A DNA stretch of 64,000 bases from an uncultured delta proteobacterium (lineage in GTDB: Bacteria > Desulfobacterota > Binatia > Binatales > Binataceae). The number at the start of each line of letters is the position of its first letter. Position 1 is the first letter of the stretch. A model generated the notes under the pieces. The model searched no databases. It was not told the DNA's origin and saw nothing but the letters and a program-made list of their open reading frames with translations. The stretch lies in contig CAWEEQ010000004.1 of NCBI GenBank assembly GCA_963808235.1, forward strand, positions 1,344,001 to 1,408,000, written 5' to 3'. The position numbers were made by a program, and so were the translations under genes. Below, piece by piece: positions 10,994 through 25,716 of the stretch.

Positions 10994-13115
10994 CTAGCCA
11001 ACGTCGCCGAGACTGAAGCCGAACTCCAGCATCTTCTTCAGAGCCACGCGCGCGCCAGCCGATTGTGCGCCCTGCAGCGATGGATCGCGGCGCAACCACT
11101 CGTCGGCCATCTTGCGCGCTCGTTCGATCGTACGAAGGTCCCGAATAAGGTGGACGAAGCGAAGCGGCAGTGCGCCAGTCTGTCGCGATCCCAGCAGGTC
11201 GCCCGGTCCGCGCAGCTTCAGGTCGGCGTCCGCGACCTCGGCGCCGGTAGTGCATCTGCGCATGAGCTCGAGGCGTTCCAGCGCCTTATCTTCCGCATCG
11301 CGCGACGCCACCAGGCAGCATCGCGACGGCCTTTCGCCGCGCCCCACTCTGCCCCGCAACTGATGCAGTTGCGCGAGCCCGTATCGCTCCGCACAATCCA
11401 CTACGATGACGGTCGCCTCGGGCACGTCGATTCCAACCTCTACCACCGTCGTGCAGACCAGGAGATCGATGCCTCCGTCGCGGAACGCGCGCATCACACG
11501 GTCTTTCTCCGCGCCGCTCATCCGGCCGTGCATCGTCCCGATTCTCGCGCCGCGCAAACTGCCCTTGGCCAGACGCGCAGCAGTCGCAGAAACCGATTTG
11601 GCTTCATCTTCTTCGCCGTCGATAAACGGGACGACGTAGTACGCTCGGCCGCCCGCGGCGATCTCTGCAGCGAGCCCGCTGTGCACATTGGGCAGATCTT
11701 CTTCAGCGTACACTTCAGTCGCGATCGGCGTGCGCCCCGGCGGAAGCTCGTCGAGAAACGACACGTCGAGGTTTGCGAACAGAGTCATCGCAAGGCTTCG
11801 TGGAATCGGAGTCGCGGTCATCATGAGCAGGTTCGCCCGCGGCCCCAGCGCTTTCAGCTTCGCGCGATCGAAAACGCCGAAGCGATGCTGCTCGTCGATT
11901 ATGCCAAGTGCGAGATCGCGGATTCGCACTTTCTCCTGGATTAGCGCATGCGTCCCGAAAACGACCGCGACCTCGCCATCTGGCGAGTCCGCGCAAAATG
12001 TCCGCGCGCTCTTTTCCGATGACTTTTCCAGTCAGCAACGCGCTCCGGACTCCAAGCTGCCGGCACCATCGATCGAAGCTCCGGAAATGTTGCTCCGCGA
12101 GCAGTTCGGTCGGAGCCATCATGGCCGCCTGATAGCCGCATTCTGTCGCGCGCAGCATCGCCCAGAACGCCACCAGGGTCTTGCCAGAGCCCACATCGCC
12201 CATCAGCATGCGATTCATCTGACCCGGGCGGGTGAGGTCGCCGTCGATTTCCTCTATCGCGCGAGATTGCGACGAAGTCAGTTGGAACGGAAGATCGTCG
12301 GTCAACCGGCGGCTTAGATTTCGCGTTGCGCCGAGCGCGATACCGGCACGGCGTGCAGCGCGTCGGCGTTCGATCGAAAGCGCCAACTCGAAAACGAACA
12401 ATTCATCGAAGGCAAGAGCGAGATGACCGGGCGAGTCTCCGTCCGATAGCGCATGGAAGTCCGCGTCCGGCGGCGGATCATGCAAATACGCAAGCGCATC
12501 GCGAAGCGAGGGAAGTTCTCCGCGAACCTCCTCGGGCACCGCATTTCGAATAGAGATGCTAGCTTCCGCGAGAACGCGCGCCACGATGCTGCCGAAGAGC
12601 CGTTGCCCGACGAGCGCCGGCAGCCGATAGACCGGCCGGATAGGTTTCGGATCTCCGTCCGCGAGCCGATGCACTTCCGGCTGGTGAATCTCGATTTGAT
12701 CTTCGCCTCCGGCGTCAGAGACCGCCGTGACGCGCCCGCGCACGAGCACGCGCTCTCCGCCAGGAAGATAACCACGCATGTATGCGGGCAGGTTGAACCA
12801 CACGAGCCGAATCCGCCGGCCCTTCGCGTCGAGCCATCCGCTGGCGAGCCTTCTCCAGCGCGAGCCGCGCATCGGCCGCTCGACGATCTTGCCGAGGTCG
12901 CCTTCGACGACCGCCATCACTCCCGGCCGCAGATCGTTGGACGGGGTGCGTTCGCGCCAATCCTGGTATCGAGCAGGGAGATGGAAGATCAGATCGTTTG
13001 CGGTGACGATGCCGCGCGCTTCCAGAGCCATCGCACGCTTCGGGCCGATTCCCGGGAGCTCGTCAATCCGACTCGTGATTTGAAACGGTTTCGCGCCGCG
13101 CTCTTCTTTGCCCAT
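10994..13115 (-). CDS. recG: ATP-dependent DNA helicase RecG (one +1 frameshift near 11981)
   Basis: GDVGSGKT, MAPTELLAEQH in the 5' frame; GTHALIQ, IDEQHRFG, TATPIPR, QLRGRVGRG in the 3' frame. Confidence 0.93.
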
Positions 13116-13137
13116 CGTCTGCGACGCGAGGCGCACG

Positions 13138-16100
13138 CTAGCCGCGATGGTAATCCTGCAGCGCGCGCACTTCGAACGGATGAGTTTTCAAGGCCTCGAT
13201 TCCCTGAACCGCCGCGTTCGCACCCGCCATCGTCGTGAAGTACGGCAGGCGAAGTTCGAGCGCGGTGCGCCGAATCGAGAATGAATCTTTCGTCCCGCTC
13301 GCGTCAGGCGTGTTAATCACCATGGCGATTCGACCCTGCTTCATCGCGTCGACGATGTGCGGGCTGCCTTGTAGAACCTTGTTGATGTGCTCGCACTCAA
13401 GACCGAGCTGCCGGATGTAGCTCGAAGTTCCTGAGGTCGCAATCAAGTCGAACCCCATCGCAACCAGCCCGCGTGCTATCGGTTCAAGTTGTGTCTTGTC
13501 CTCGTCGCGCACGCTGATGAAGACCAACCCGGTGTCGGGCAGATTGGACGACGCCGCCAGCGACGCCTTCGCAAACGCCATCGCGAAGTTGGTGTCGATA
13601 CCCATCACCTCGCCGGTCGATTTCATCTCCGGGCCCAGAATTGTGTCGACTCCGGGAAATCTGCCAAATGGGAAGACCGACTCCTTGACAGCAACGTGCG
13701 ACGGCACCCGCTCGGTAGTGAATCCAATTTCGCGGAGCTTCTTTCCTGCCATCACGAGCGCTGCGTACTTCGCCAGCGGAACGCCGATCGCCTTGCTGAC
13801 GAATGGTATGGTGCGCGATGCACGCGGATTAACCTCGAGGATGAAGACCTCGCCGGCGAAAATTGCATATTGGATATTGATCAGTCCGACCACGCCGAGT
13901 TCTCGCGCCAGCAGTTTGGTTTGCGCTATCAATTCATCCTGCAGCGCGCGACTAAGCGTGGTCGGCGGCAACGCGCATGCGCTGTCGCCGGAGTGAATCC
14001 CGGCATGTTCGACGTGCTCCATGATTCCTCCGACGACTACGATTTCGCCGTCGGAGATCGCATCAACATCCACTTCGATCGCGCCTTGCAGATAGCGATC
14101 GATCAACAATGGATGACGCTCGGAGGCTTGCAGAGCCTGCGTGACGTAGCGTCGAAGCTCTTCTTCATTTGGGATAACTTCCATCGCACGGCCGCCGAGA
14201 ACGTAGGAAGGCCGGATCAGCACCGGGTAGCCTACTTTCGCGGCGCCCGCCAAGGCTTGCTCGAGACCGCGCGCGAGGACTCCATGGGGCTGCTTGAGGC
14301 CCAGCCGCGAGACCATCTCATTGAACCGCTCCCGATCTTCGGCTCGGTCGATCGAGTCTGGACTGGTCCCCAGAATTGGAACTCCAGCGCGCGCCAGCGG
14401 CACCACCAGCTTGAGAGGAGTTTGTCCGCCGAACTGCACGATTACGCCCAGCGGCTTCTCGCGTTCCGCGATCGCGATCACATCTTCAAATGTAAGCGGC
14501 TCGAAGTAGAGACGATCCGAGATGTCGTAGTCGGTAGAGACAGTCTCGGGATTGCAGTTCACCATGATCGTCTCGAAACCCGCCTCTTTCAGCGCGAGGC
14601 TCGCATGCACGCAACAATAGTCGAACTCGATCCCCTGCCCTATCCGGTTCGGACCGCCGCCCAGAATGATCACCTTGTTGCGACTGGTCGGCGGCGCTTC
14701 ATCTTCGCCTTCGTAGGTCGAGTACAGATACGGCGTGAACGCTTCGAATTCCGCGCCACAGGTGTCTACGGATTTGAAGACTGGCAGCACCCCGATCTCG
14801 CGACGGGCATCGGCCGCCGTGGCTTCATCGATCGAGCGGAGCTCGGCGATTCGCCGATCGGAAAAACCCATCGCCTTGAACTCGCGAAAGTACCCCTCGC
14901 TAAGCGGCTCCGTCGCGACCCGATGCTCCACGGAAACGAGATCTGCCACCGCGTCGATAAACCAACGATCGATCTTGCTCAGCTCAAACACTTCCTCGGC
15001 GGTGAGACCGAGTCGCAGCGCGTCGGCCAGATAGTACAAACGATGACTGCTCGGGACCGCGACCTGTGCGCGGATCTCCGCGAGGGCCTGGGCTCGCGTC
15101 TGCTCTGAGAGCCCACTCTCGAGTCCGTAGGAGCCTATCTCGAGCGAACGCAGCGCCTTCTGCAGCGACTCCTTGAACGTCCTTCCAATCGCCATCGCCT
15201 CGCCGACCGACTTCATCTGCGGGCCCAGCACGTCGGCGGCGCCGCGAAACTTCTCGAATGTGAAGCGCGGAATCTTGGTGACTACATAGTCGATGGTCGG
15301 CTCAAAGCAGGCCGGCGTCATCCGTGTGATGTCATTCGGTATCTCATCGAGGCGGTAGCCAACGGCGAGGCGCGCGGCGATCTTCGCAATTGGAAATCCG
15401 GTCGCCTTCGACGCGAGCGCCGAACTTCGCGACACGCGCGGATTCATCTCGATTATGACCATCCGGCCGCTGGTCGGCTCGATAGCGAACTGAATATTTG
15501 ATCCACCTGTATCGACGCCGATTTCCCGGATGATCCGCAGCGCGGCGTCGCGCATTATTTGATATTCCTTGTCGGTGAGCGTCTGCGCCGGCGCGACCGT
15601 GATCGAGTCGCCAGTATGCACGCCCATCGGATCGAGGTTTTCGATCGAACAGATAATCACCACGTTGTCGGCACAGTCGCGCATCACTTCGAGCTCGAAT
15701 TCCTTCCATCCCTCGACCGATTGCTCGATCAGCACCTCGTGGCTGGGCGACTGTTCAAGACCGTACGCAACTTTGGCGCGGTAGTCGTCGAGTTCGCGGG
15801 CGATCGAACCGCCGGTACCGCCGAGTGTTCGCGAGGGTCGTATGATAACCGGCAGGCCCAACTCGGTCAGCGACCGCTCAGCGTCGGCGGCAGAGTGCGC
15901 AATTACCGAGCGCGGAACTTCGAGTCCGATTTTCAACATCGCTTGCTTGAACAGGTCGCGGTCCTCGGCTTTCTTGATCGCCGGCAGCTTTGCGCCTATC
16001 AGCTCGCAGTTGAATCGTTCGAGTACGCCCGATTCGGCAAGCTCGATCGCAAGATTCAACGCCGTCTGTCCGCCGACGGTCGGAAGCAATGCGTCCGGCC

Positions 16101-16344
16101 GTTCCCGCTCGATTATTTTGCTCAGCGCGGCAACTGTCATCGGCTCTATATAGGTGCGATCCGCCAGGTCCGGATCGGTCATGATCGTCGCCGGATTTGA
16201 GTTGACCAGGATGAGCTTCAGGCCCTCCTCGCGGAGTGCTTTCAACGCCTGCGTGCCCGAGTAGTCGAACTCGCACGCCTGCCCGATCACGATCGGCCCC
16301 GAGCCAATCAGCAGGACTGATTTTAAATCTTTACGAAGCGGCAA
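13138..16344 (-). CDS. carB: Carbamoyl-phosphate synthase large subunit
   Basis: [17 protein letters not shown], duplicated ATP-grasp domains, MGS domain. Confidence 0.98.
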
Positions 16345-16378
16345 CTTGAGAATCCAATTTATTTGTCAACTTGTGTTT

Positions 16379-17575
16379 TCATCGCGCGGCCGCGGCCTCG
16401 GCGGCGATAATTCGGTCCAGGCTATCTGCGCCATAGCGCGGGAATGCTGCGACCAGCTTCTTGAATCGGCCGAACAGATAGCTCGAATCGTGCGGACCCG
16501 GCGACGCCTCAGGATGGTACTGCACCGAAAAAAATGGCGCCCCGATTCCACGCAGTCCTTCGACGGTCTTGTCGTTCAGGTTCAAATGCGAAAGTTCCGC
16601 ACGGCCCTTGAGCGATTCGGAGTCGACCGCGAACCCGTGATTCTGCGAAGTTATCTCGACCCGCTGCGTCCGCAGATCCATCACCGGGTGATTCGCGCCA
16701 TGATGACCGAAGTCGAGCTTGTAGGTTTTGCCGCCCAGCGCCAGCCCGAGCAGTTGATGACCAAGGCAGATGCCGAACACGGGCTTCTTCCCAAGTACTC
16801 CCGCGATGGCTCTGTAAGCGTACGGCAGCGCGGCAGGATCCGCCGGACCATTTGACAGAAAAATCCCATCGGGATTGTTCGCGAGAATCTCCACCGCGGT
16901 TGATGCCGCGGGCATCACCTTTACCCGGAACCCGGTCGCCACGAGGCGGCGCAGGATGTTCAATTTGATCCCGTAGTCGAGCGCCACTACAAACGGCGCA
17001 TCGCGCATCGCTTCTCGACTCGCTCGAACGTGCCCGCGACCTAGTTCCCAATCTCCGAAATCCCAATCGTAGGCCTCGCGGCAGGTCACCTCTTTCACCA
17101 GGTCACGCCCGACCAGGCCTGGCGACGCCTTTGCCTTGCGCACAAGCGATTCCGGATTCAGATCGGTACTTGAGATCACCGCCTCCTGCGCGCCATGGGT
17201 ACGCAGATGACGAACCAGCGCGCGCGTATCTATACCCTCGATTCCGACGACCCGCGCCTGTTCAAGATACTTTCCAAGCGGCATTTCCGAGCGCCAGTTC
17301 GACGGCCGCTCCCAATATTCGCGGACGATGAAGCCCTCGACGTAAACGCGGCGCGACTCCGCATCTTCCGCGTTGACGCCGACATTGCCGATTTCCGGAT
17401 AGGTCATGCAGACCAATTGGCCCTTATAGGACGGGTCGGTCAGCACTTCCTGGTAACCGGTCATCGCGGTATTGAACACCGCTTCGCCGACGGTCTCGCC
17501 GATCGCGCCAAATGCGTGCCCGCGGAAAATCCTGCCGTCCGCCAACGCGAGTATCGCTTCAGTGCCTTTGCTCAT
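16379..17575 (-). CDS. carA: Carbamoyl-phosphate synthase small subunit
   Basis: [27 protein letters not shown]. Confidence 0.98.
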
Positions 17576-18942
17576 CGAACCGCGGAATCCTTCCTGCCGT
17601 CGAAAACAATTTCGCCGTTTACAATAGTGAGAACCGCCCTACCCTTCAGACGCATCCCGGTGAACGGCGTATTGCGGCTTTTCGACAGAAACTTTTCAGG
17701 AGTGACGGTCCATTCCAGGTTTTGATCGATAACCGTAATGTCCGCGATTGCACCGACCGCAAGTGTTCCCGCTTCGAGTCGAAGCAGAGCCGCCGGGTTG
17801 AGCGACATCATTTGGACCATACGGGACACGTCGATTGTCGATCGATGCACCAGGTCGAGCGCCAATCCGAGCGAAGTTTCGAGACCGACCACGCCGTTCG
17901 CGGCATGCCCAAAACTTTCGGCAACACTCTGCGCGAGCTTTACTGGCGCATGGCCCGGACCGAAATGCGCCGCCAGCTCGTCCATTCGCTTCGACTTGGG
18001 ATCGTGCGGCGCGTGATCGGACGCGATCATGTCGGCGGTTCCATCGCGTATCGCGGCGCGAACCGCCTCAACGTCTTCGCGGCTGCGAAGCGGTGGATTC
18101 ATTTTCGCGTTCGGTCCCCAGGTCAGTGCCGCGGATTCATCGAGGGCAAAATGATGCGGCGTCACTTCGCATGTAACCTGTGCTCCGTGCCGGCGCGCCG
18201 CTCGAATCAGATCGAACGACTCCGCGGTTGACACATGCGCAACATGAACCGTGGCGCCCGAGCCAATCGCGATCGCGAGGTCGCGCCGCACGCGCTCTGA
18301 TTCCGCGGAGTCGCTATAGCCGGTGACCCCAAGTTGGCTCGATATATCGCTCGCGTTCAGCGCACCGCCGCACGACAACGATCGATCCTCCTCATGCAGT
18401 GAGATCGCGTAGCCGAGTCGCTTGGTCGCATCGAAGGCCTGGGAAAGAATCATCGGATCGTCGATCGGAATGCCGTCGTCGGAAAACAGTCTGGCGCCTG
18501 CTTCGATCATGGCTGCGAAGTCTACCGGTTCAACGCCGCGAAGATCGCGCGTGACTGCCGATACCGGAATCAGCCGCGCGCAATGCGCACTCTTGGCGCG
18601 TTCGAGCATGTAGCGCGTCGTAGCGGGATTGTCGTTGACCGGCGACGTGTTGGCCATCGCTGCAACTGCCGTGAAACCACCGGCCGCAGCGGCTCTCAGT
18701 CCGGTCGCGATCGTCTCCTTTTCTGGAAACCCGGGGTCGCGCAAATGGACATGAGGGTCGATGAGTCCCGGAACTACCCAACAATCGCGCACATCTACAA
18801 TCGGAACGCCCTCAGGAGGTGTCAACGATCCTGCCGGTTCAACCGCTTCGATCTCGCCGTCGCGGACAAGCAGATCATACGCGCCTTCAACCGCGCTTCC
18901 CGGATCGATGACTCTTCCGCCTCTGAGCAGCATCGAGTTCAT
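17572..18942 (-). CDS. pyrC: Dihydroorotase (type I, long form)
   Basis: [36 protein letters not shown]. Confidence 0.95.
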
Positions 18943-20885
18943 TGCGCTGCTTCCGTTTCCTTGAGCGGTTCGACGATCGAATAAATCATCACCCGGTCGT
19001 GCGACATCGTTTTGCTATCGGCATCAGAGGGCGCGAGCCGGACCTGCACGCGCTCGGTGCGCGAGGTCGGGATATTCTTGCCAACGAAATTCGGCCGAAT
19101 CGGCACCGCGCGATGCCCGCGGTCGATCAATACGGCAAGCTTGACTGCCGCGGGACGTCCGCGCTGCCAAATCGTCGCCATCGCTCGCTGCACGGTCCAT
19201 CCGCTGTTAATCACGTCATCAACGAGGATTATGGTTCGATCTTCGACATCGAAATTGTCGGTGCCGTCGATCGGATGCACGGCTTCCAAGGGACTGTACA
19301 CGTCGAGGGCCGCGCAAGGCGGACGAATCCTGGTCTTGCGTTCGACGAGGTCGCGGAGCCTCAGCGCGAGGATCGCGCCACGGCTGATTACGCCGACGAT
19401 CGACACGCCGGTCATATCTGGCATCTCGGCGATCAGCTGATCGGCAATGGATTCGATTGCATGCGCGACCTCGTCGGACCGCATGATTTCGCGCTGCGGG
19501 CCGCGCTTGTAGGGCTCGTAGCCGCCTTCTTCGGCCTGCTTGACGCTCTCGAAAACCGCTAGCGAGCCTTCTTCGATCCATTGGCGGACGTAGCCTTGCA
19601 GGTTTTCGTCGAAGCGGTAGAAGCGATGAGAGCGCGCGTGGCCGACGTATTCGATCTTCAGTTCACGTTCACAGAAGTCGCACTTCAGCGCGAGTATGGT
19701 GGCGTCCGCGCTTCGCGCGAACCGGAAACGCGGGCGCAAGTACGCGCCTTCGAACCTGGTGACGCAGTTGGGATTTGCGCATCGCGGCGGCGCCCCGCTC
19801 TTGAAACGAATCGGCTCCGCCGTCGGCCGGCGCTGAATCCCTGCGCCAGCGCTCTTTTCGATAAGCCATGCGATCAGTGCCATGCGGACCGGGACCCCCG
19901 CGGCGGCTTGCTCGAAGTACACCGCGCGCGGATCGCTATCGAGTTCGTACGCGAGCTCGCCCGTGCGCGGCAGCGGATGCATCACGACCGCTTCCTGGGT
20001 GCGGCTGGTCTTGAGCGCGCGCGCGTCGAAGCGCACGTACTCGCCGCCATTCGCGTCCTTGCCGGTCATTCGCTCTTTCTGCAGACGCGTGACGTAAAAT
20101 GCGTCGAGCGCGGCCGGCGGTTCGACCGACGCAATGTTCCGCGTCGCGTCGCCACCGGTGAACAGCGCCATCTGATGCGGCGCGCTGGGCGTCAGGTAAA
20201 GCGCATCGAGTCCGCCCGCGAGCGTCTTGAGCTCGTCCATCGTCACCGTCGAGAAGTTGTAGTTGCGCTCCGCGGCGAGCCGCTCCAGCACGTAGTCGGG
20301 CACATCCATTCCCGCGGTCGGCACCGCGACGATATTCGCGCCGAATCGCGCCAGCGCATAAATCAGCGAATGAACCGTGCGGCCGAACTTCAAGTCCCCG
20401 CACAGCGCGACAGTCAGTCCCTTCAGATGCCCTTTCTTCCTGCGCAGGATGTACAGGTCGCAGAGCGTTTGCGTCGGATGCTCGCGGCTGCCGTCGCCGG
20501 CGTTCAGCACCGGGCACGCCGCGTAGTCCGCCGCAACTCGCGCACTGCCGTCGTGAGGATGGCGCAACACGATCAGGTCCGCATACCCGCTGACAACGCG
20601 GACCGTGTCGGCGAGGCTCTCGCCCTTGGCGGCCGAACTTGCGTGCATATCCGCCGAACTGATCACGGCGCCACCGAGGCGATGCATCGCGGATTCGAAA
20701 CTGAGGCGGGTCCGCGTCGAGGGCTCGTAAAATAGCGTCGCCATGATTAGTCCGCTGGCGGTCGTGATCTGTCCGCCACTGTCGAGCGATTCCGCAAAGC
20801 CGTCGGCGAGCGCGAACACGTGCTCGATCTCCGAGGTGTCCAGATCGTCGATCGAAACGACGTCGAATTTTTTAAGCCGTGACAT
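18939..20885 (-). CDS. pyrB: Aspartate carbamoyltransferase fused to PyrI zinc domain and PyrR-like PRTase domain
   Basis: FYEPSTRTRLSFE, HPTQTLCD, RLQKER, HPLPR (ATCase); RCANPNCVT...LKCDFCE (PyrI C-terminal Zn site); IILVDDVINSGWT, LIDRGHRAVPIRPNFVGKNI (PyrR fold). Confidence 0.93.
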   Translation of the reverse strand: MSRLKKFDVVSIDDLDTSEIEHVFALADGFAESLDSGGQITTASGLIMATLFYEPSTRTRLSFESAMHRLGGAVISSADMHASSAAKGESLADTVRVVSGYADLIVLRHPHDGSARVAADYAACPVLNAGDGSREHPTQTLCDLYILRRKKGHLKGLTVALCGDLKFGRTVHSLIYALARFGANIVAVPTAGMDVPDYVLERLAAERNYNFSTVTMDELKTLAGGLDALYLTPSAPHQMALFTGGDATRNIASVEPPAALDAFYVTRLQKERMTGKDANGGEYVRFDARALKTSRTQEAVVMHPLPRTGELAYELDSDPRAVYFEQAAAGVPVRMALIAWLIEKSAGAGIQRRPTAEPIRFKSGAPPRCANPNCVTRFEGAYLRPRFRFARSADATILALKCDFCERELKIEYVGHARSHRFYRFDENLQGYVRQWIEEGSLAVFESVKQAEEGGYEPYKRGPQREIMRSDEVAHAIESIADQLIAEMPDMTGVSIVGVISRGAILALRLRDLVERKTRIRPPCAALDVYSPLEAVHPIDGTDNFDVEDRTIILVDDVINSGWTVQRAMATIWQRGRPAAVKLAVLIDRGHRAVPIRPNFVGKNIPTSRTERVQVRLAPSDADSKTMSHDRVMIYSIVEPLKETEAAQ

Positions 20886-20925
20886 CAGGAATTTCGCCGC
20901 GTCGCGATCGCGAGCACGCGACGCT

Positions 20926-21468
20926 TCACTTTTCCTCTCCGATTACGACTGCGTCCGCGCCGTCAATCTCAACCAGGCGCACGTAGACGCGTTGCCCATC
21001 CGGCGCCTGAATATTTTTGCCCACGTAGTCGGCGCGAATCGGAAGCTCGCGCTCGCCGCGATCCACCAGCACCGCCAGCTGAACGGACTCCGCCCTGCCC
21101 AGGTCGGAGATCGCATCAAGCGCGGCGCGCACCGTCCGGCCGGTGTAAAGGACGTCGTCCACCAGCACGACTCGTTTGCCGTCGAGCGAAAACGGGATAT
21201 CGCGACCGATCAACCTCGGGTCGCCTGGCATTCCCTTTCCGTCGTCGCGGTATGACGAGATATCAAGCGTGCCGACCGGTACCGGCCGCTTGCCATTGGA
21301 ACGAAGCTCGGCGGCGATCCGCTCCGCCAGCTTCGCGCCGCGACGCACGATGCCGACCAGCACGACGTTGTCGGCGCCCCCGTTGCGCTCGGCGATCTCC
21401 ATTGCGATTCGCTTGATCGATCGTCCGAGCTGAGCCGAGTCCAGCGCAACGCTTCGCTGCGCGCTCAT
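20926..21468 (-). CDS. pyrR: Pyrimidine operon attenuation protein / uracil PRTase PyrR
   Basis: KRIAMEIAERN, LDISSYRDD, VDDVLYTGRT, ELPIRADYVGKN. Confidence 0.95.
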   Translation of the reverse strand: MSAQRSVALDSAQLGRSIKRIAMEIAERNGGADNVVLVGIVRRGAKLAERIAAELRSNGKRPVPVGTLDISSYRDDGKGMPGDPRLIGRDIPFSLDGKRVVLVDDVLYTGRTVRAALDAISDLGRAESVQLAVLVDRGERELPIRADYVGKNIQAPDGQRVYVRLVEIDGADAVVIGEEK

Positions 21469-21478
21469 CGCGACACCC

Positions 21479-21510
21479 AAAAAAAATCCCGGCTGCGAAT
21501 ACAGCCGGGT
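21479..21510 (-). terminator. Attenuator terminator of the pyr leader
   Basis: Minus strand CCCGGCTG-tattcg-CAGCCGGG followed by A and T8, ending 10 nt upstream of the pyrR ATG. Confidence 0.85.
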
Positions 21511-21537
21511 CGAAGACTACATAGTTTCATTGTCGTC

Positions 21538-21568
21538 CCTTTCCGCTATCTCAGTAGCGGGTTAAAGG
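21538..21568 (-). promoter_or_regulatory. PyrR binding loop (anti-antiterminator)
   Basis: Minus strand CCTTTAA-C-CCGCTA-CTGAGA-TAGCGG-AAAGG: UUUAA bulge, upper stem and CNGNGA hexaloop match the PyrR-binding consensus. Confidence 0.85.
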
Positions 21569-21615
21569 TGATCAATATGTACGATCGGATCGCTCGGCGG
21601 TCAAGGCTCCGACGG

Positions 21616-22149
21616 CTACGCGCCGCGCTTGCGCTCGATTTTTCTTAGCCGCTGATCCTGATCGCGGGTCTGAACCGTGATCCGATCGTCGAAACGATCG
21701 AACTTGCGCGCCAGGTTGGCCAGCGCTTTGTTGGTCTCCTTGAGCTCCGCGCCGAGTCTCTTCGCTGCCATCTCGGCCGAGGTAGCGATTTCGCGCTTGA
21801 GAGTCTTTGTCGTCTCGCCGCCAGTAGCCACCGCCTGCTGGCTGGTGGACTCGACAGCGCGTGCGGCTTCCTCGCGAAACTCGACGCGCGCCTTGCCCAG
21901 CGTCTCGCCCAGGCGAATCATCTCCGCGCCAAGGTCGTCGCGAGTCACCGCAATAGCCCTGCGATTTTCCGCGATTTGCTCTGACAGAAATCGAATCTGC
22001 CCGCCGACCTCTGCGAACTGACCAAAGATCTCGTCGCGCAGCGTATCCAGTCGTCCGCCGAAGCCGGATACCGCTTCGACCACCAGATCGAAGCGCGCGC
22101 CCAGTTCCTCGAGCATCGCGCCAAGCCTGTTCACCGCTTCGTCCGCCAC
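21616..22149 (-). CDS. Hypothetical coiled-coil protein
   Basis: 177-aa ORF with heptad, Glu/Ala/Arg-rich pattern; GGGGAG RBS; co-oriented after lepB. Confidence 0.65.
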   Translation of the reverse strand: MADEAVNRLGAMLEELGARFDLVVEAVSGFGGRLDTLRDEIFGQFAEVGGQIRFLSEQIAENRRAIAVTRDDLGAEMIRLGETLGKARVEFREEAARAVESTSQQAVATGGETTKTLKREIATSAEMAAKRLGAELKETNKALANLARKFDRFDDRITVQTRDQDQRLRKIERKRGA

Positions 22150-22168
22150 CTGGATCTCCCCCTTAAGG

Positions 22169-22921
22169 CTAGTGCACGAGCATTCCGACGCGATCCCATC
22201 TGATGTACTCGAACCATAGCAGCAACGGAGTCACCCAGGATGCGCCGTCGGCTTTCTCTTCATTCCACGGAAGGTAAATCACCGCCGCCCGGCCTTCGAC
22301 ATCGTTATGATCGACGAAGCCCCAGAAGCGGCTGTCGTAACTGCGATCGCGATTGTCGCCCATCATGAACAGCTTGCCTGCAGGCACCGTAACCGGACCG
22401 AAGTTATCGCGCGGCGAGACTGGCGACCGGTCCTGCGGCGCGGCCTCCATATGCGCGTGCGGGTCGTCCATCTTCTTGCCGTTCAGCCAGACCGTGCCGT
22501 CCTTCACTTGAATCGTGTCGCCAGCCACGCCGATTACGCGCTTGATAAAATCCTTGGTTCGATCGGGCGGGAAGACGAATACGACAACGTCGCCGCGATG
22601 CACTGGTTCGACGTTGAACAGATACCGCCCATAAGGGAGTCCCGGAATCTCGAGCCCGAAAATCGAGTCGGGCATCCTGAGCCCGTAGATGATCTTGTTG
22701 ACCAGGATGTGATCCCCGACCAGCAGCGTCGGCTCCATCGAGCCCGAGGGAATTTTGTACGCCTGGATGAAAAACGTGCGGATAAAAATCGCGAGCACGA
22801 GCGCGATCAGCATCGCCTCGGCATATTCGCGGGTTACCGACTTCTGACCTTCGGCGCTCGCCGAGCTCTCGCGCACCGGTTGCGCCGCCGCCTTTGATAT
22901 GTTTCGCGCTGGTTCGGCCAC
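22169..22921 (-). CDS. lepB: Signal peptidase I
   Basis: IPSGSMEPTL, FIKRVIG, MGDNRDRSYDSRFWG. Confidence 0.96.
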   Translation of the reverse strand: MAEPARNISKAAAQPVRESSASAEGQKSVTREYAEAMLIALVLAIFIRTFFIQAYKIPSGSMEPTLLVGDHILVNKIIYGLRMPDSIFGLEIPGLPYGRYLFNVEPVHRGDVVVFVFPPDRTKDFIKRVIGVAGDTIQVKDGTVWLNGKKMDDPHAHMEAAPQDRSPVSPRDNFGPVTVPAGKLFMMGDNRDRSYDSRFWGFVDHNDVEGRAAVIYLPWNEEKADGASWVTPLLLWFEYIRWDRVGMLVH

Positions 22922-22927
22922 TGCCGG

Positions 22928-24730
<1,803 letters not shown>

Positions 24731-24731
<1 letters not shown>

Positions 24732-24783
24732 TTCAACTCGGCGGTTCCGTCTTTCAACTCGGCAGTTCCGTCTTTGAACTCGG
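24731..24783. repeat. 21-bp tandem repeat, about 2.5 copies
   Basis: tttcaactcggcggttccgtc / tttcaactcggcagttccgtc / tttgaactcgg. Confidence 0.8.
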
Positions 24784-25716
24784 TTGGCCCCGTTGCTGCT
24801 TGAAAAACTTGAACGTCTCTTCGAGTCCCTCTTCGAGTTTCTTCTCCGGACGCCATCCGAGCACCTCGGCCGCACGTGCCGGCGAAATTACCGATCGCAT
24901 CTGTTCGCCCGGCTTCGCCGGCCCATACTCCGGATGAGTTGGGAAATCGGCGATCGCCGCGAGCGTGGAAAACAAATCGTTCACGTTGGTCTCGATTCCG
25001 GTGCCGACGTTGAGCGCTAGTCCCGACGCCTTCGACTTGAGCGCCGCAACGATCGCCGCGACCACGTCGCCAACGTAGACATAGTCGCGCGTCTGCTCGC
25101 CCGTGCCGTAGATCGTTACCGGCTTTCCATCCAAAATTCGTCCGCAGAAAATCGCCACCACACCGGCCTCGCCATGCGGATCCTGCCGCGGGCCGTAGAC
25201 ATTTCCGAAACGCAGCGACAGGTAATCGATCCCGTACTGGGCCTTGTAGAAAAACAGGTACGCTTCGGTCGCAAGCTTGGCGACTCCGTAGGGACTGACC
25301 GGGCGCGTCGGATCGTCTTCTTTGCAGGGAAGATTTTCCTGCTCGCCGTAAATAGCTCCTCCGCTCGATGAAAAAATCACCCGCCTGAGCCCATGGGCGC
25401 GCGCGCTTTCCATCAGGTTGAGAAATCCAATCACGTTTACCTGTGCGTCGAAGGCGGGATCCGCGACCGAGCGCCGCACGTCCATCTGCGCCGCAAGATG
25501 AACGATGATCTCCGGCTTCACCTTCGCAACCGCCGACGCAACTGCCGAGGCTGCGCGCAGATCGATCGGATAGGCCGTCGCCTTGGGATTGACCCGGTAG
25601 CGCTTGCCGGTCGAAAAATCGTCGAACAGGAAGACCTCGTCCGCTTTGGTCGCGACCAGCGCATCGATCAGGTGCGAGCCGATAAAGCCGGCCCCGCCGG
25701 TAACTAGAATTCTCAT
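24754..25716 (-). CDS. NAD-dependent epimerase/dehydratase (GalE-like)
   Basis: [13 protein letters not shown] (YxxxK), NVYGPRQ. Confidence 0.9.

Follow-up and report, generated by a model that had tools for sequence, protein, structure and literature searches.

Aspartate carbamoyltransferase (ATCase) is a textbook case of allostery, with decades of work on its regulatory chain. Here, we describe an ATCase gene in a stretch of 64,000 nucleotides (the window) from a soil bacterium, an uncultured delta proteobacterium of the family Binataceae, class Binatia (contig CAWEEQ010000004.1, positions 1,344,001 to 1,408,000 of the forward strand). At 18939..20885 on the minus strand lies an open reading frame (ORF) of 648 amino acids, with no interruption in frame, in which a catalytic chain of the E. 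coli and archaeal type is followed by a zinc domain of the PyrI C-terminal type, a conserved connector and a phosphoribosyltransferase (PRTase) domain derived from PyrR. This architecture is real and conserved and, as far as our literature searches show, undescribed, while the mechanism that we propose for it, with the PRTase domain as a candidate nucleotide sensor, is plausible. The gene and its parts are as follows.

18939..20885, minus strand: whole ORF of the three-part ATCase (protein P0001), 648 amino acids plus stop
19851..20885, minus strand: catalytic chain of the E. coli/archaeal type, residues 1-345 (OTCace_N and OTCace), above Pfam and NCBIfam cut-offs
19788..19850, minus strand: variable tether, residues 346-366, mean pairwise identity 0.18
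19650..19787, minus strand: PyrI_C-type zinc domain (PF02748), residues 367-412, with cysteines 369, 374, 402 and 405
19491..19649, minus strand: conserved connector, residues 413-465, matching no known family, mean pairwise identity 0.59
19026..19490, minus strand: PyrR-derived domain of the type I PRTase fold, residues 466-620, by phmmer and Foldseek against PyrR
18942..19025, minus strand: C-terminal tail, residues 621-648, of partly low model confidence (predicted local distance difference test score, pLDDT, below 50 at 621-627 and 639-648)

A first-pass annotation, made from the letters alone, had already read the ORF as uninterrupted and tripartite, and both points hold. The strings that it quoted are all present (CANPNC...CDFC, AIESIADQLIAE and VDDVINSGWT here and KRIAMEIAERN in the adjoining PyrR), its placing of the zinc domain at about 19790-19670 and of the PRTase domain at about 19490-19040 agrees with the residue positions (codons of C369 at 19779-19781, of C405 at 19671-19673 and of residue 465 at about 19491-19493), and the four Pfam families that it named, OTCace_N, OTCace, PyrI_C and Pribosyltran, were all matched. 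An alignment of 32 full-length fused proteins, with identity down to 41% (alignment A1), gave a mean pairwise identity of 0.64 for the catalytic part and 0.50 for the PRTase domain, next to the values listed above for connector and tether. The AlphaFold model has a mean pLDDT of 79.7 and a predicted template modelling score (pTM) of 0.68; the tether reaches a pLDDT of about 70-78 per 10-residue block, and a strand is predicted within the tail at residues 631-636.

Parts of the fused protein

The catalytic chain matches OTCace_N (PF02729) at residues 8-148 (E 7e-44, 149.9 bits against a cut-off of 29.9) and OTCace (PF00185) in two stretches, owing to an insertion around residues 232-260, the better of them at residues 260-341 (E 4e-18, 66.3 bits against 29.4). 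It also passes two ATCase equivalog models of NCBIfam, TIGR00670 (288 bits, cut-off 236.95) and NF002032 (270.9 bits, cut-off 263). The nearest solved structures are the ATCases of M. jannaschii (E 2.5e-77) and P. abyssi (E 1.3e-76); over the archaeal and E. coli enzymes, the E-values run from 2.5e-77 to about 4e-63 and the target-normalised template modelling (TM) scores in Foldseek from 0.77 to 0.87, the best lying at 0.84-0.87, whereas the match to B. subtilis ATCase is far weaker (E 2.6e-33). The carbamoyl-phosphate and aspartate motifs, whose residue roles we assume to be those of the E. coli enzyme, are invariant in all 32 rows of the alignment: STRTR (S56-R60), K87, R108-H109, HPTQ (H136-Q139), R169, R267/Q269 and HPLPR (H303-R307). 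The intact ATCase of E. coli and archaeal type that had been placed at about residues 1-345 is thereby borne out. The genome to which the window belongs (G000; 4.59 Mb in 4 contigs, 92.95% complete) contains two OTCace_N loci, the second of which is argF, beside argD, and the same search found no second ATCase in it. Because argF is the sole other carbamoyltransferase, the fused gene encodes the organism's only ATCase.

PyrI_C (PF02748) matches residues 368-412 with 28.6 bits against a cut-off of 23.4, and in the whole genome it matches this ORF alone. All 32 rows have C369, C374, C402 and C405, the cysteines of the four-cysteine PyrI-type zinc domain that had been proposed. The stretch aligns weakly with the C-terminal domains of M. 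jannaschii and E. coli PyrI (E 0.2-0.4 in a single-sequence search), and its fold is not confirmed by structure search, because no PyrI chain stands among the top Foldseek rows for the C-terminal model, the rows listed being PyrR and hypoxanthine-guanine PRTase only. The N-terminal nucleotide-binding domain of PyrI (PF01948) was not found in the organism's genome by a search that was positive in 7 of 14 control genomes, nor in five further carrier genomes (G496, G497, G665, G202 and G308), nor within the window protein. The earlier statement that no such domain is recognisable thus extends to all 6 genomes checked.

What had been called a linker falls into two parts, the variable tether (residues 346-366) and, after the zinc domain, residues 413-465. 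The latter are no linker but a conserved connector, predicted as folded, whose conservation is exceeded only by that of the catalytic domain. G415, W436, F445 and A451 are invariant in the alignment, E452, E453, Y456, P458, Y459 and G462-R465 are conserved in at least 90% of rows, and the connector ends in FxSxxQAEExGYxPYKxGPQR. AlphaFold predicts three short strands, a helix at residues 427-439, a further strand and a further helix. For residues 360-465, no usable protein Atlas match was obtained. A possible likeness of the ending (FxSxxQAEExGYxPYK) to an Ada-type zinc-binding motif was considered and dropped, as residues 409-463 match no Pfam family at E<=10.

The C-terminal domain is recognisably a PyrR relative. 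Pribosyltran scores 41.5 bits (cut-off 26.3) over residues 472-600, solved PyrR structures match with E 3.5e-28 to 1.3e-24 in phmmer, and Foldseek places the predicted domain on PyrR with E about 1e-17 and target-normalised TM scores of 0.80-0.91, in agreement with the claim of a full PyrR-fold domain; identity to the adjoining stand-alone PyrR is 33%. All 32 rows share D556, D557, V558, G562, T564, R592 and K603, and DRGH at 588-591 is found in 30-31 of them.

Three departures from PyrR had been claimed, and we compared the fused group with 23 canonical PyrRs. The signature R..R.AhEI.E.n of the PyrR N-terminal helix is gone from the fused group. The residues T17, R18, H21 and R26 of B. caldolyticus PyrR (T18, R19, H22 and R27 in B. 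subtilis), which we take to bind RNA, align with E478, S479, D482 and E487; Asp or Glu stands at position 487 in 30 of the 32 rows and at position 482 in 22. The loss of the basic helix therefore holds, with mostly acidic or neutral residues at the aligned positions across the family. The position of the YRDD loop, the flexible catalytic loop of PyrR, is occupied by YSPLEAVHPIDG in the window protein, and the consensus of the fused group lacks the motif; its loss is real in this lineage but is not a trait of the family, as the distant member P0150 has YRDD and two others, P0132 and L055, have FRDD. These three also retain GRT in the loop that reads VDDVLYTGRT in PyrR, which places them closer to PyrR. 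Elsewhere GRT has mostly become GWT, the position of the Arg being Trp in 22, Arg in 9 and Met in 1 of the 32 rows, so the altered phosphoribosyl pyrophosphate (PRPP) loop was read correctly, although its core (D556, D557, V558, G562 and T564) is kept throughout. The assignment of the PyrR loops to PRPP and to pyrophosphate binding, like that of the helix residues to RNA binding, follows the PyrR literature.

A homodimer is predicted for residues 411-641, with a score of 0.49 against 0.00 for the best of three controls. Of 30 proteins whose solved structures are pairs of one chain, 20 reach the mark applied, as against 1 of 23 whose structures are single chains. Between runs, the prediction has a contact agreement of at least 84% and a partner pLDDT of at least 79. 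The predicted interface comprises residues 554, 563, 565-567, 569-570, 573, 579-583 and 593-599, the last of these being the hood loop.

Distribution, origin and surroundings of the fusion

With the C-terminal 303 residues as query (E<=1e-35), 93 of the 301 genomes that we sampled across the class gave a match to the C-terminal module, or 92 of 300 when the window's own genome is left out. On the latter basis, the matches fall in five families (49/49 genomes in f1, 21/25 in f86, 1/1 in f87, 18/19 in f89 and 3/3 in f95), and there was none among the 203 genomes of the other 15 families of the class. The f1 count takes in three unpublished genomes (G408, G282 and G403), without which it is 46/46. 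The matching frame is open over at least 624 amino acids in 90 of the 93, with identities in the C-terminal half down to 38%. A search of 5.8 billion proteins gave 788 matches to the C-terminal part; among the 120 of these that were listed, the full-length ones have the same four Pfam domains, and the source names are Candidatus Binatus, Binataceae or 'Deltaproteobacteria'. Across 201 genomes of the wider phylum, none of the matches listed outside the class starts before query residue 89, and all of them are ordinary PyrR.

In a second phylum, the fusion is present in 2, perhaps 3, of 251 genomes, a tally that takes in four unpublished genomes (G713, G714, G531 and G540) with only PyrR-like matches. 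One case is a protein of 654 amino acids in a metagenome-assembled genome (MAG) labelled Candidatus Sulfotelmatobacter (L055), and another is a frame of 670 amino acids in G665, in which the PRTase domain shares 99% identity with its counterpart in P0132; the possible third case, G728, has an open frame of 311 amino acids that covers query residues 5-301. P0150, of 658 amino acids and low G+C, is a further member of the family with 32% identity in the C-terminal part. The search across genomes that the first-pass annotation had put forward has thus turned up the same architecture well beyond the window.

A rival reading is that the fusion is an artefact, in which assembly or gene calling joined separate genes. 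What can be said for this is that two gene calls of 385 amino acids (P0274 and P0275) stop after the catalytic domain, that two genomes of the genus carry frameshifts in the gene and that lepA in the window also looks frameshifted. However, the three exceptions to the open frame are an ORF that stops at a contig end (L005) and two that are frameshifted inside the catalytic domain, at differing sites and not at a domain border (L016 near residues 117-143 and L028 near residue 280, both in assemblies of few contigs). When the intact gene in L019 is read out of frame, it yields exactly the tail of P0274, so P0274 and P0275 are frame-shifted copies, whose shift may be either real or due to faulty sequencing. 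In soil metagenomes, short contigs span both the catalytic/zinc and the connector/PRTase junctions with 0 gaps, and four sequencing runs, one of which may be the window's own source sample, have no inserted or deleted letter; parts of the gene without such contig cover carry no information. For the window, the artefact reading is refuted, and we give it practically no probability as a general explanation, though a natural split form may exist in some strains. As a separate observation, the frame-shifted copies (P0274, P0275, L016 and L028) sit in assemblies of very long contigs. No stand-alone chain of zinc domain, connector and PRTase domain was found in a protein search over all lengths. Two short matches considered as such, P0123 and P0129, are fragments that start with the last helix of the catalytic domain.

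In a tree of PyrR-type domains, 34 fused domains lie on one side of a branch from 27 canonical PyrRs (98.3 in the Shimodaira-Hasegawa-like approximate likelihood ratio test, SH-aLRT), the canonical set including the upstream neighbours of fused genes and four PyrRs of the second phylum. The tree comes from a quick search without bootstraps and has three rows of odd composition; its topology fits a single origin and not repeated recent duplication of the adjoining pyrR.

Relatives of two parts throw light on the order of events. Proteins of 447-476 amino acids on long contigs, from MAGs labelled Dehalococcoidia, Chloroflexota and Planctomycetota (P0351, P0365, P0370, P0384 and P0368), have OTCace_N, OTCace and PyrI_C and no PRTase domain. 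P0351 is 48% identical to the window protein over residues 5-460, the zinc domain and connector can be aligned between the two forms, and the two-part form stops at a G(F/Y)xP motif, exactly where the PyrR-like domain begins. A locus search with P0351 as its one query gave 3 loci, among them L054 (Dehalococcoidia), where the order is pyrR, the gene for catalytic chain, zinc domain and connector (464 amino acids, 809-2203 on the plus strand), pyrC, carA and carB; no PyrI N-terminal domain was found in the L054 genome, which is small and of completeness not known. Since two-part forms devoid of an effector domain end where PyrR starts, the PyrR domain appears to have been added to, or lost from, such a scaffold. 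The first-pass annotation had the PyrR domain take the place of the PyrI effector domain; the PyrI N-terminal domain is indeed not found, but the history was probably not a direct swap of one for the other.

Among five sister-family genomes without the fusion (loci L049-L053, in G209, G110, G076, G038 and G143), none has a PyrI_C match. Their pyrB is of a different, B. subtilis-like type that aligns over its N-terminal half only, at about 40% identity, and in G076, G110, G143 and G038 it adjoins a pyrR match on the same contig. With a different pyrB beside pyrR in four of these five genomes, the class-B-type gene (the type of E. coli and archaea) of the fusion lineages looks like a replacement in an old operon slot.

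The neighbours of the fused gene in the window are the following.

20926..21480, minus strand: canonical stand-alone pyrR (P0002), directly upstream (NF003549, 213.4 bits against a cut-off of 138)
17572..18942, minus strand: pyrC (dihydroorotase), downstream of the fused pyrB
16379-17575, minus strand: carA, downstream in the same orientation
13138-16344, minus strand: carB, downstream in the same orientation
21488..21509, minus strand: terminator-like hairpin and T run (9 pairs, 7 of them G-C, then ATTTTTTTT), a match to the consensus only

pyrR, fused pyrB, pyrC, carA and carB form an operon-like row on the minus strand, and the order recurs in relatives: all 14 of their loci that were examined have a canonical pyrR directly ahead of the fused gene. 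P0002 retains KRIAMEIAERN, YRDD and VDDVLYTGRT. The ATG of pyrC overlaps the stop of the fused gene as ATGA (18939-18942), which suggests translational coupling of the two. The hairpin lies 8 nucleotides upstream of the pyrR ORF and may be an attenuator, or else the terminator of the gene at 21616-22149, an ORF of 177 amino acids on the minus strand that is rich in Ala, Glu and Arg. No Rfam PyrR binding site was found at E<=1 within 12000-23000. An 11-nucleotide loop consensus of PyrR sites is uninformative: at up to 3 mismatches it has 145 matches, where chance alone would give about 188, and the pyrR leader contains none of them. The folding z-score of the leader is -2.2. Farther upstream, lepA (elongation factor 4; 22928-24875, minus strand) appears to be split into two overlapping ORFs, 23991..24875 and 22928..24022, in the manner of a frameshift, which may reflect an assembly indel in this genome of 4 contigs or a pseudogene.

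Proposed role of the PyrR-derived domain

On balance, we think it rather probable that the PRTase domain is a regulatory module that both senses nucleotides and bridges catalytic trimers. The zinc domain would dock on the catalytic chain, by homology with PyrI, and the PRTase domains, whose homodimer is a prediction, would pair as in PyrR. Three such pairs would hold two catalytic trimers together as a hexamer, a task that falls to the PyrI dimers in the E. coli enzyme. The conserved ribose-phosphate site would be the effector site, and a phosphoribosyl ligand in the PRTase pocket (UMP or UTP versus GMP or PRPP) would shift the activity of the enzyme. The docking, the hexamer, the identity of the ligand and the allostery are all points that we infer; the candidate ligands, UMP/UTP, GMP/GTP and PRPP, are those of PyrR.

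Several of our own results weigh against this proposal. The NCBIfam PyrR models match residues 464-625, all below cut-off (129.3 bits against 138 for NF003549, the best, followed by 127.3 against 230, 119 against 218, 86.8 against 268 and 82.9 against 140). R502 of the pyrophosphate loop is Arg in 13 of 32 rows, with His in 7, Lys in 6, Ala in 2 and Thr in 1. The Trp that has replaced the PRPP-loop Arg in 22 of 32 rows is W563 in the window protein, within the predicted dimer interface, so that the pocket may be altered or occluded. The dimer score may reflect likeness to PyrR and not count as independent support, because PyrR dimers have already been solved. The missing upp, discussed below, leaves room for a catalytic role, and as two-part relatives do without the PRTase domain, it is accessory and not indispensable to this type of ATCase.

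A rival reading is that the domain is purely a scaffold, which only dimerises, joins two trimers mechanically where the PyrI dimer would otherwise do so and binds no effector. The predicted homodimer speaks for such a role, even if its score may derive from solved PyrR dimers, as do the position of W563 of the former PRPP loop in the interface and the poor conservation of the pyrophosphate-loop Arg. Against it stand D556, D557, V558, G562, T564, DRGHR and K603, which vary little or not at all even where overall identity has dropped to 32-40%. A scaffold would hardly seem to require that much conservation, though a structural role may account for some of these residues, and we regard a purely mechanical role as unlikely.

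PyrR proteins have uracil phosphoribosyltransferase (UPRTase) activity, and the fused protein might instead be a bifunctional enzyme, with uracil (or other) phosphoribosyltransferase activity in a C-terminal domain that joins salvage to de novo synthesis and has no part in regulating the ATCase. That activity of PyrR, the retained core motifs of the type I PRTases and the YRDD or FRDD loop with TRG/GRT motifs in P0150, P0132 and L055 are in keeping with this. No upp was found over the Pfam cut-off in the organism's genome (92.95% complete), where the only PF14681 match is the canonical pyrR, which also counts in its favour. However, the activity could come from that adjoining PyrR, in which all the motifs are intact, the window protein and most of the family have another sequence in place of the flexible loop, R502 is variable and the PRPP-loop Arg is mostly Trp, and the zinc domain and conserved connector would have no evident use in a salvage enzyme. 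A bifunctional enzyme thus seems to us quite unlikely.

A broader variant of the regulatory proposal would make PyrR-type proteins the regulatory subunits of a whole undescribed class of ATCases. The connector of the two-part enzymes would recruit in trans the free PyrR encoded upstream, the three-part enzyme would have the same partnership in covalent form, and one sensor fold would control both attenuation and the first committed enzyme in response to UMP/UTP versus GMP/PRPP. This is a speculation to which we give a low probability.

It is very improbable that control is linked to RNA or to PyrR itself, with the tethered domain binding pyr leader RNA or pairing with free PyrR so that the enzyme level feeds back on attenuation. 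The canonical pyrR directly upstream, in the window as in the 14 other loci, the terminator-like hairpin ahead of it and the retention of R592, K603 and mostly R/K597, whose equivalents are named in RNA binding by PyrR as well, could be taken to favour it. In contrast, the residues at the position of PyrR's basic N-terminal helix are acidic or neutral, L055 has the fusion and no pyrR within 5 kb upstream, and the adjacency of pyrR is inherited, since the order pyrR-pyrB is also present in sister families without the fusion.

If the sensing role that we favour is true, the enzyme would be a natural domain-swap experiment, with the zinc docking domain kept and a different nucleotide-binding fold in the effector's place, and it would reveal to what extent the T/R switch relies on one particular sensor. 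A second lesson would be a route by which an RNA-binding regulator became the sensor domain of an enzyme. Members of the family abound in a group of uncultured soil bacteria that is itself widespread, and its two-part relatives provide a built-in comparison.

Relation to known ATCases and to PyrR

The first-pass annotation knew of no such architecture from the literature, and our full-text searches, which did not extend to the pages of domain-architecture databases, found no published description of the three-part form, nor any paper on the two-part ATCases made up of PyrB, PyrI_C and connector. The quaternary types of prokaryotic ATCase set out in the available part of a 2015 review of transcarbamylases are those with dihydroorotase, those with regulatory dimers, which may be separate or fused, and trimers alone (PMC4581275); the words 'phosphoribosyl' and 'PyrR' are absent from that part of the review.

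One of the closest parallels is the class B ATCase of E. coli and archaea, built from PyrB trimers and PyrI dimers. The catalytic type and the four-cysteine PyrI_C domain are the same, and so is the logic that we propose, with paired effector domains bridging two trimers. Unlike in class B, the catalytic chain runs on at its C-terminus into a directly fused zinc domain, a connector of 50 amino acids and a PyrR-fold domain, and none of the 6 genomes checked gave a match to the PyrI N-terminal domain.

The fused PyrB-PyrI of Thermotoga maritima likewise has catalytic and regulatory parts on one polypeptide, and it presumably carries the whole of PyrI. The window protein scores 81.2 bits with the Thermotoga-type model NF009916, against a cut-off of 800, and the match, at residues 49-205, lies in the catalytic part only. 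The T. maritima enzyme is reported to be allosteric (Chen et al. 1998, as cited in PMC4581275).

With the PyrRs of Bacillus, Thermus and Mycobacterium, the C-terminal domain shares its fold and sequence family, including the hood motif DRGHRxxPI...VGKNxP and the loop DDV..(S/T)GxT. It differs from them in not being free-standing, in scoring below every NCBIfam PyrR cut-off and in forming a clade separate from the 27 canonical PyrRs, as well as in its acidic N-terminal helix residues, its YRDD loop, which is replaced in this lineage, and the Trp in place of the PRPP-loop Arg. The two-part ATCases, finally, have the same zinc domain, a connector that ends in FxSxxxAxxxG(F/Y) and, in L054, the same operon order, and they end without any effector-type domain where the three-part enzyme continues into its PyrR-derived one.

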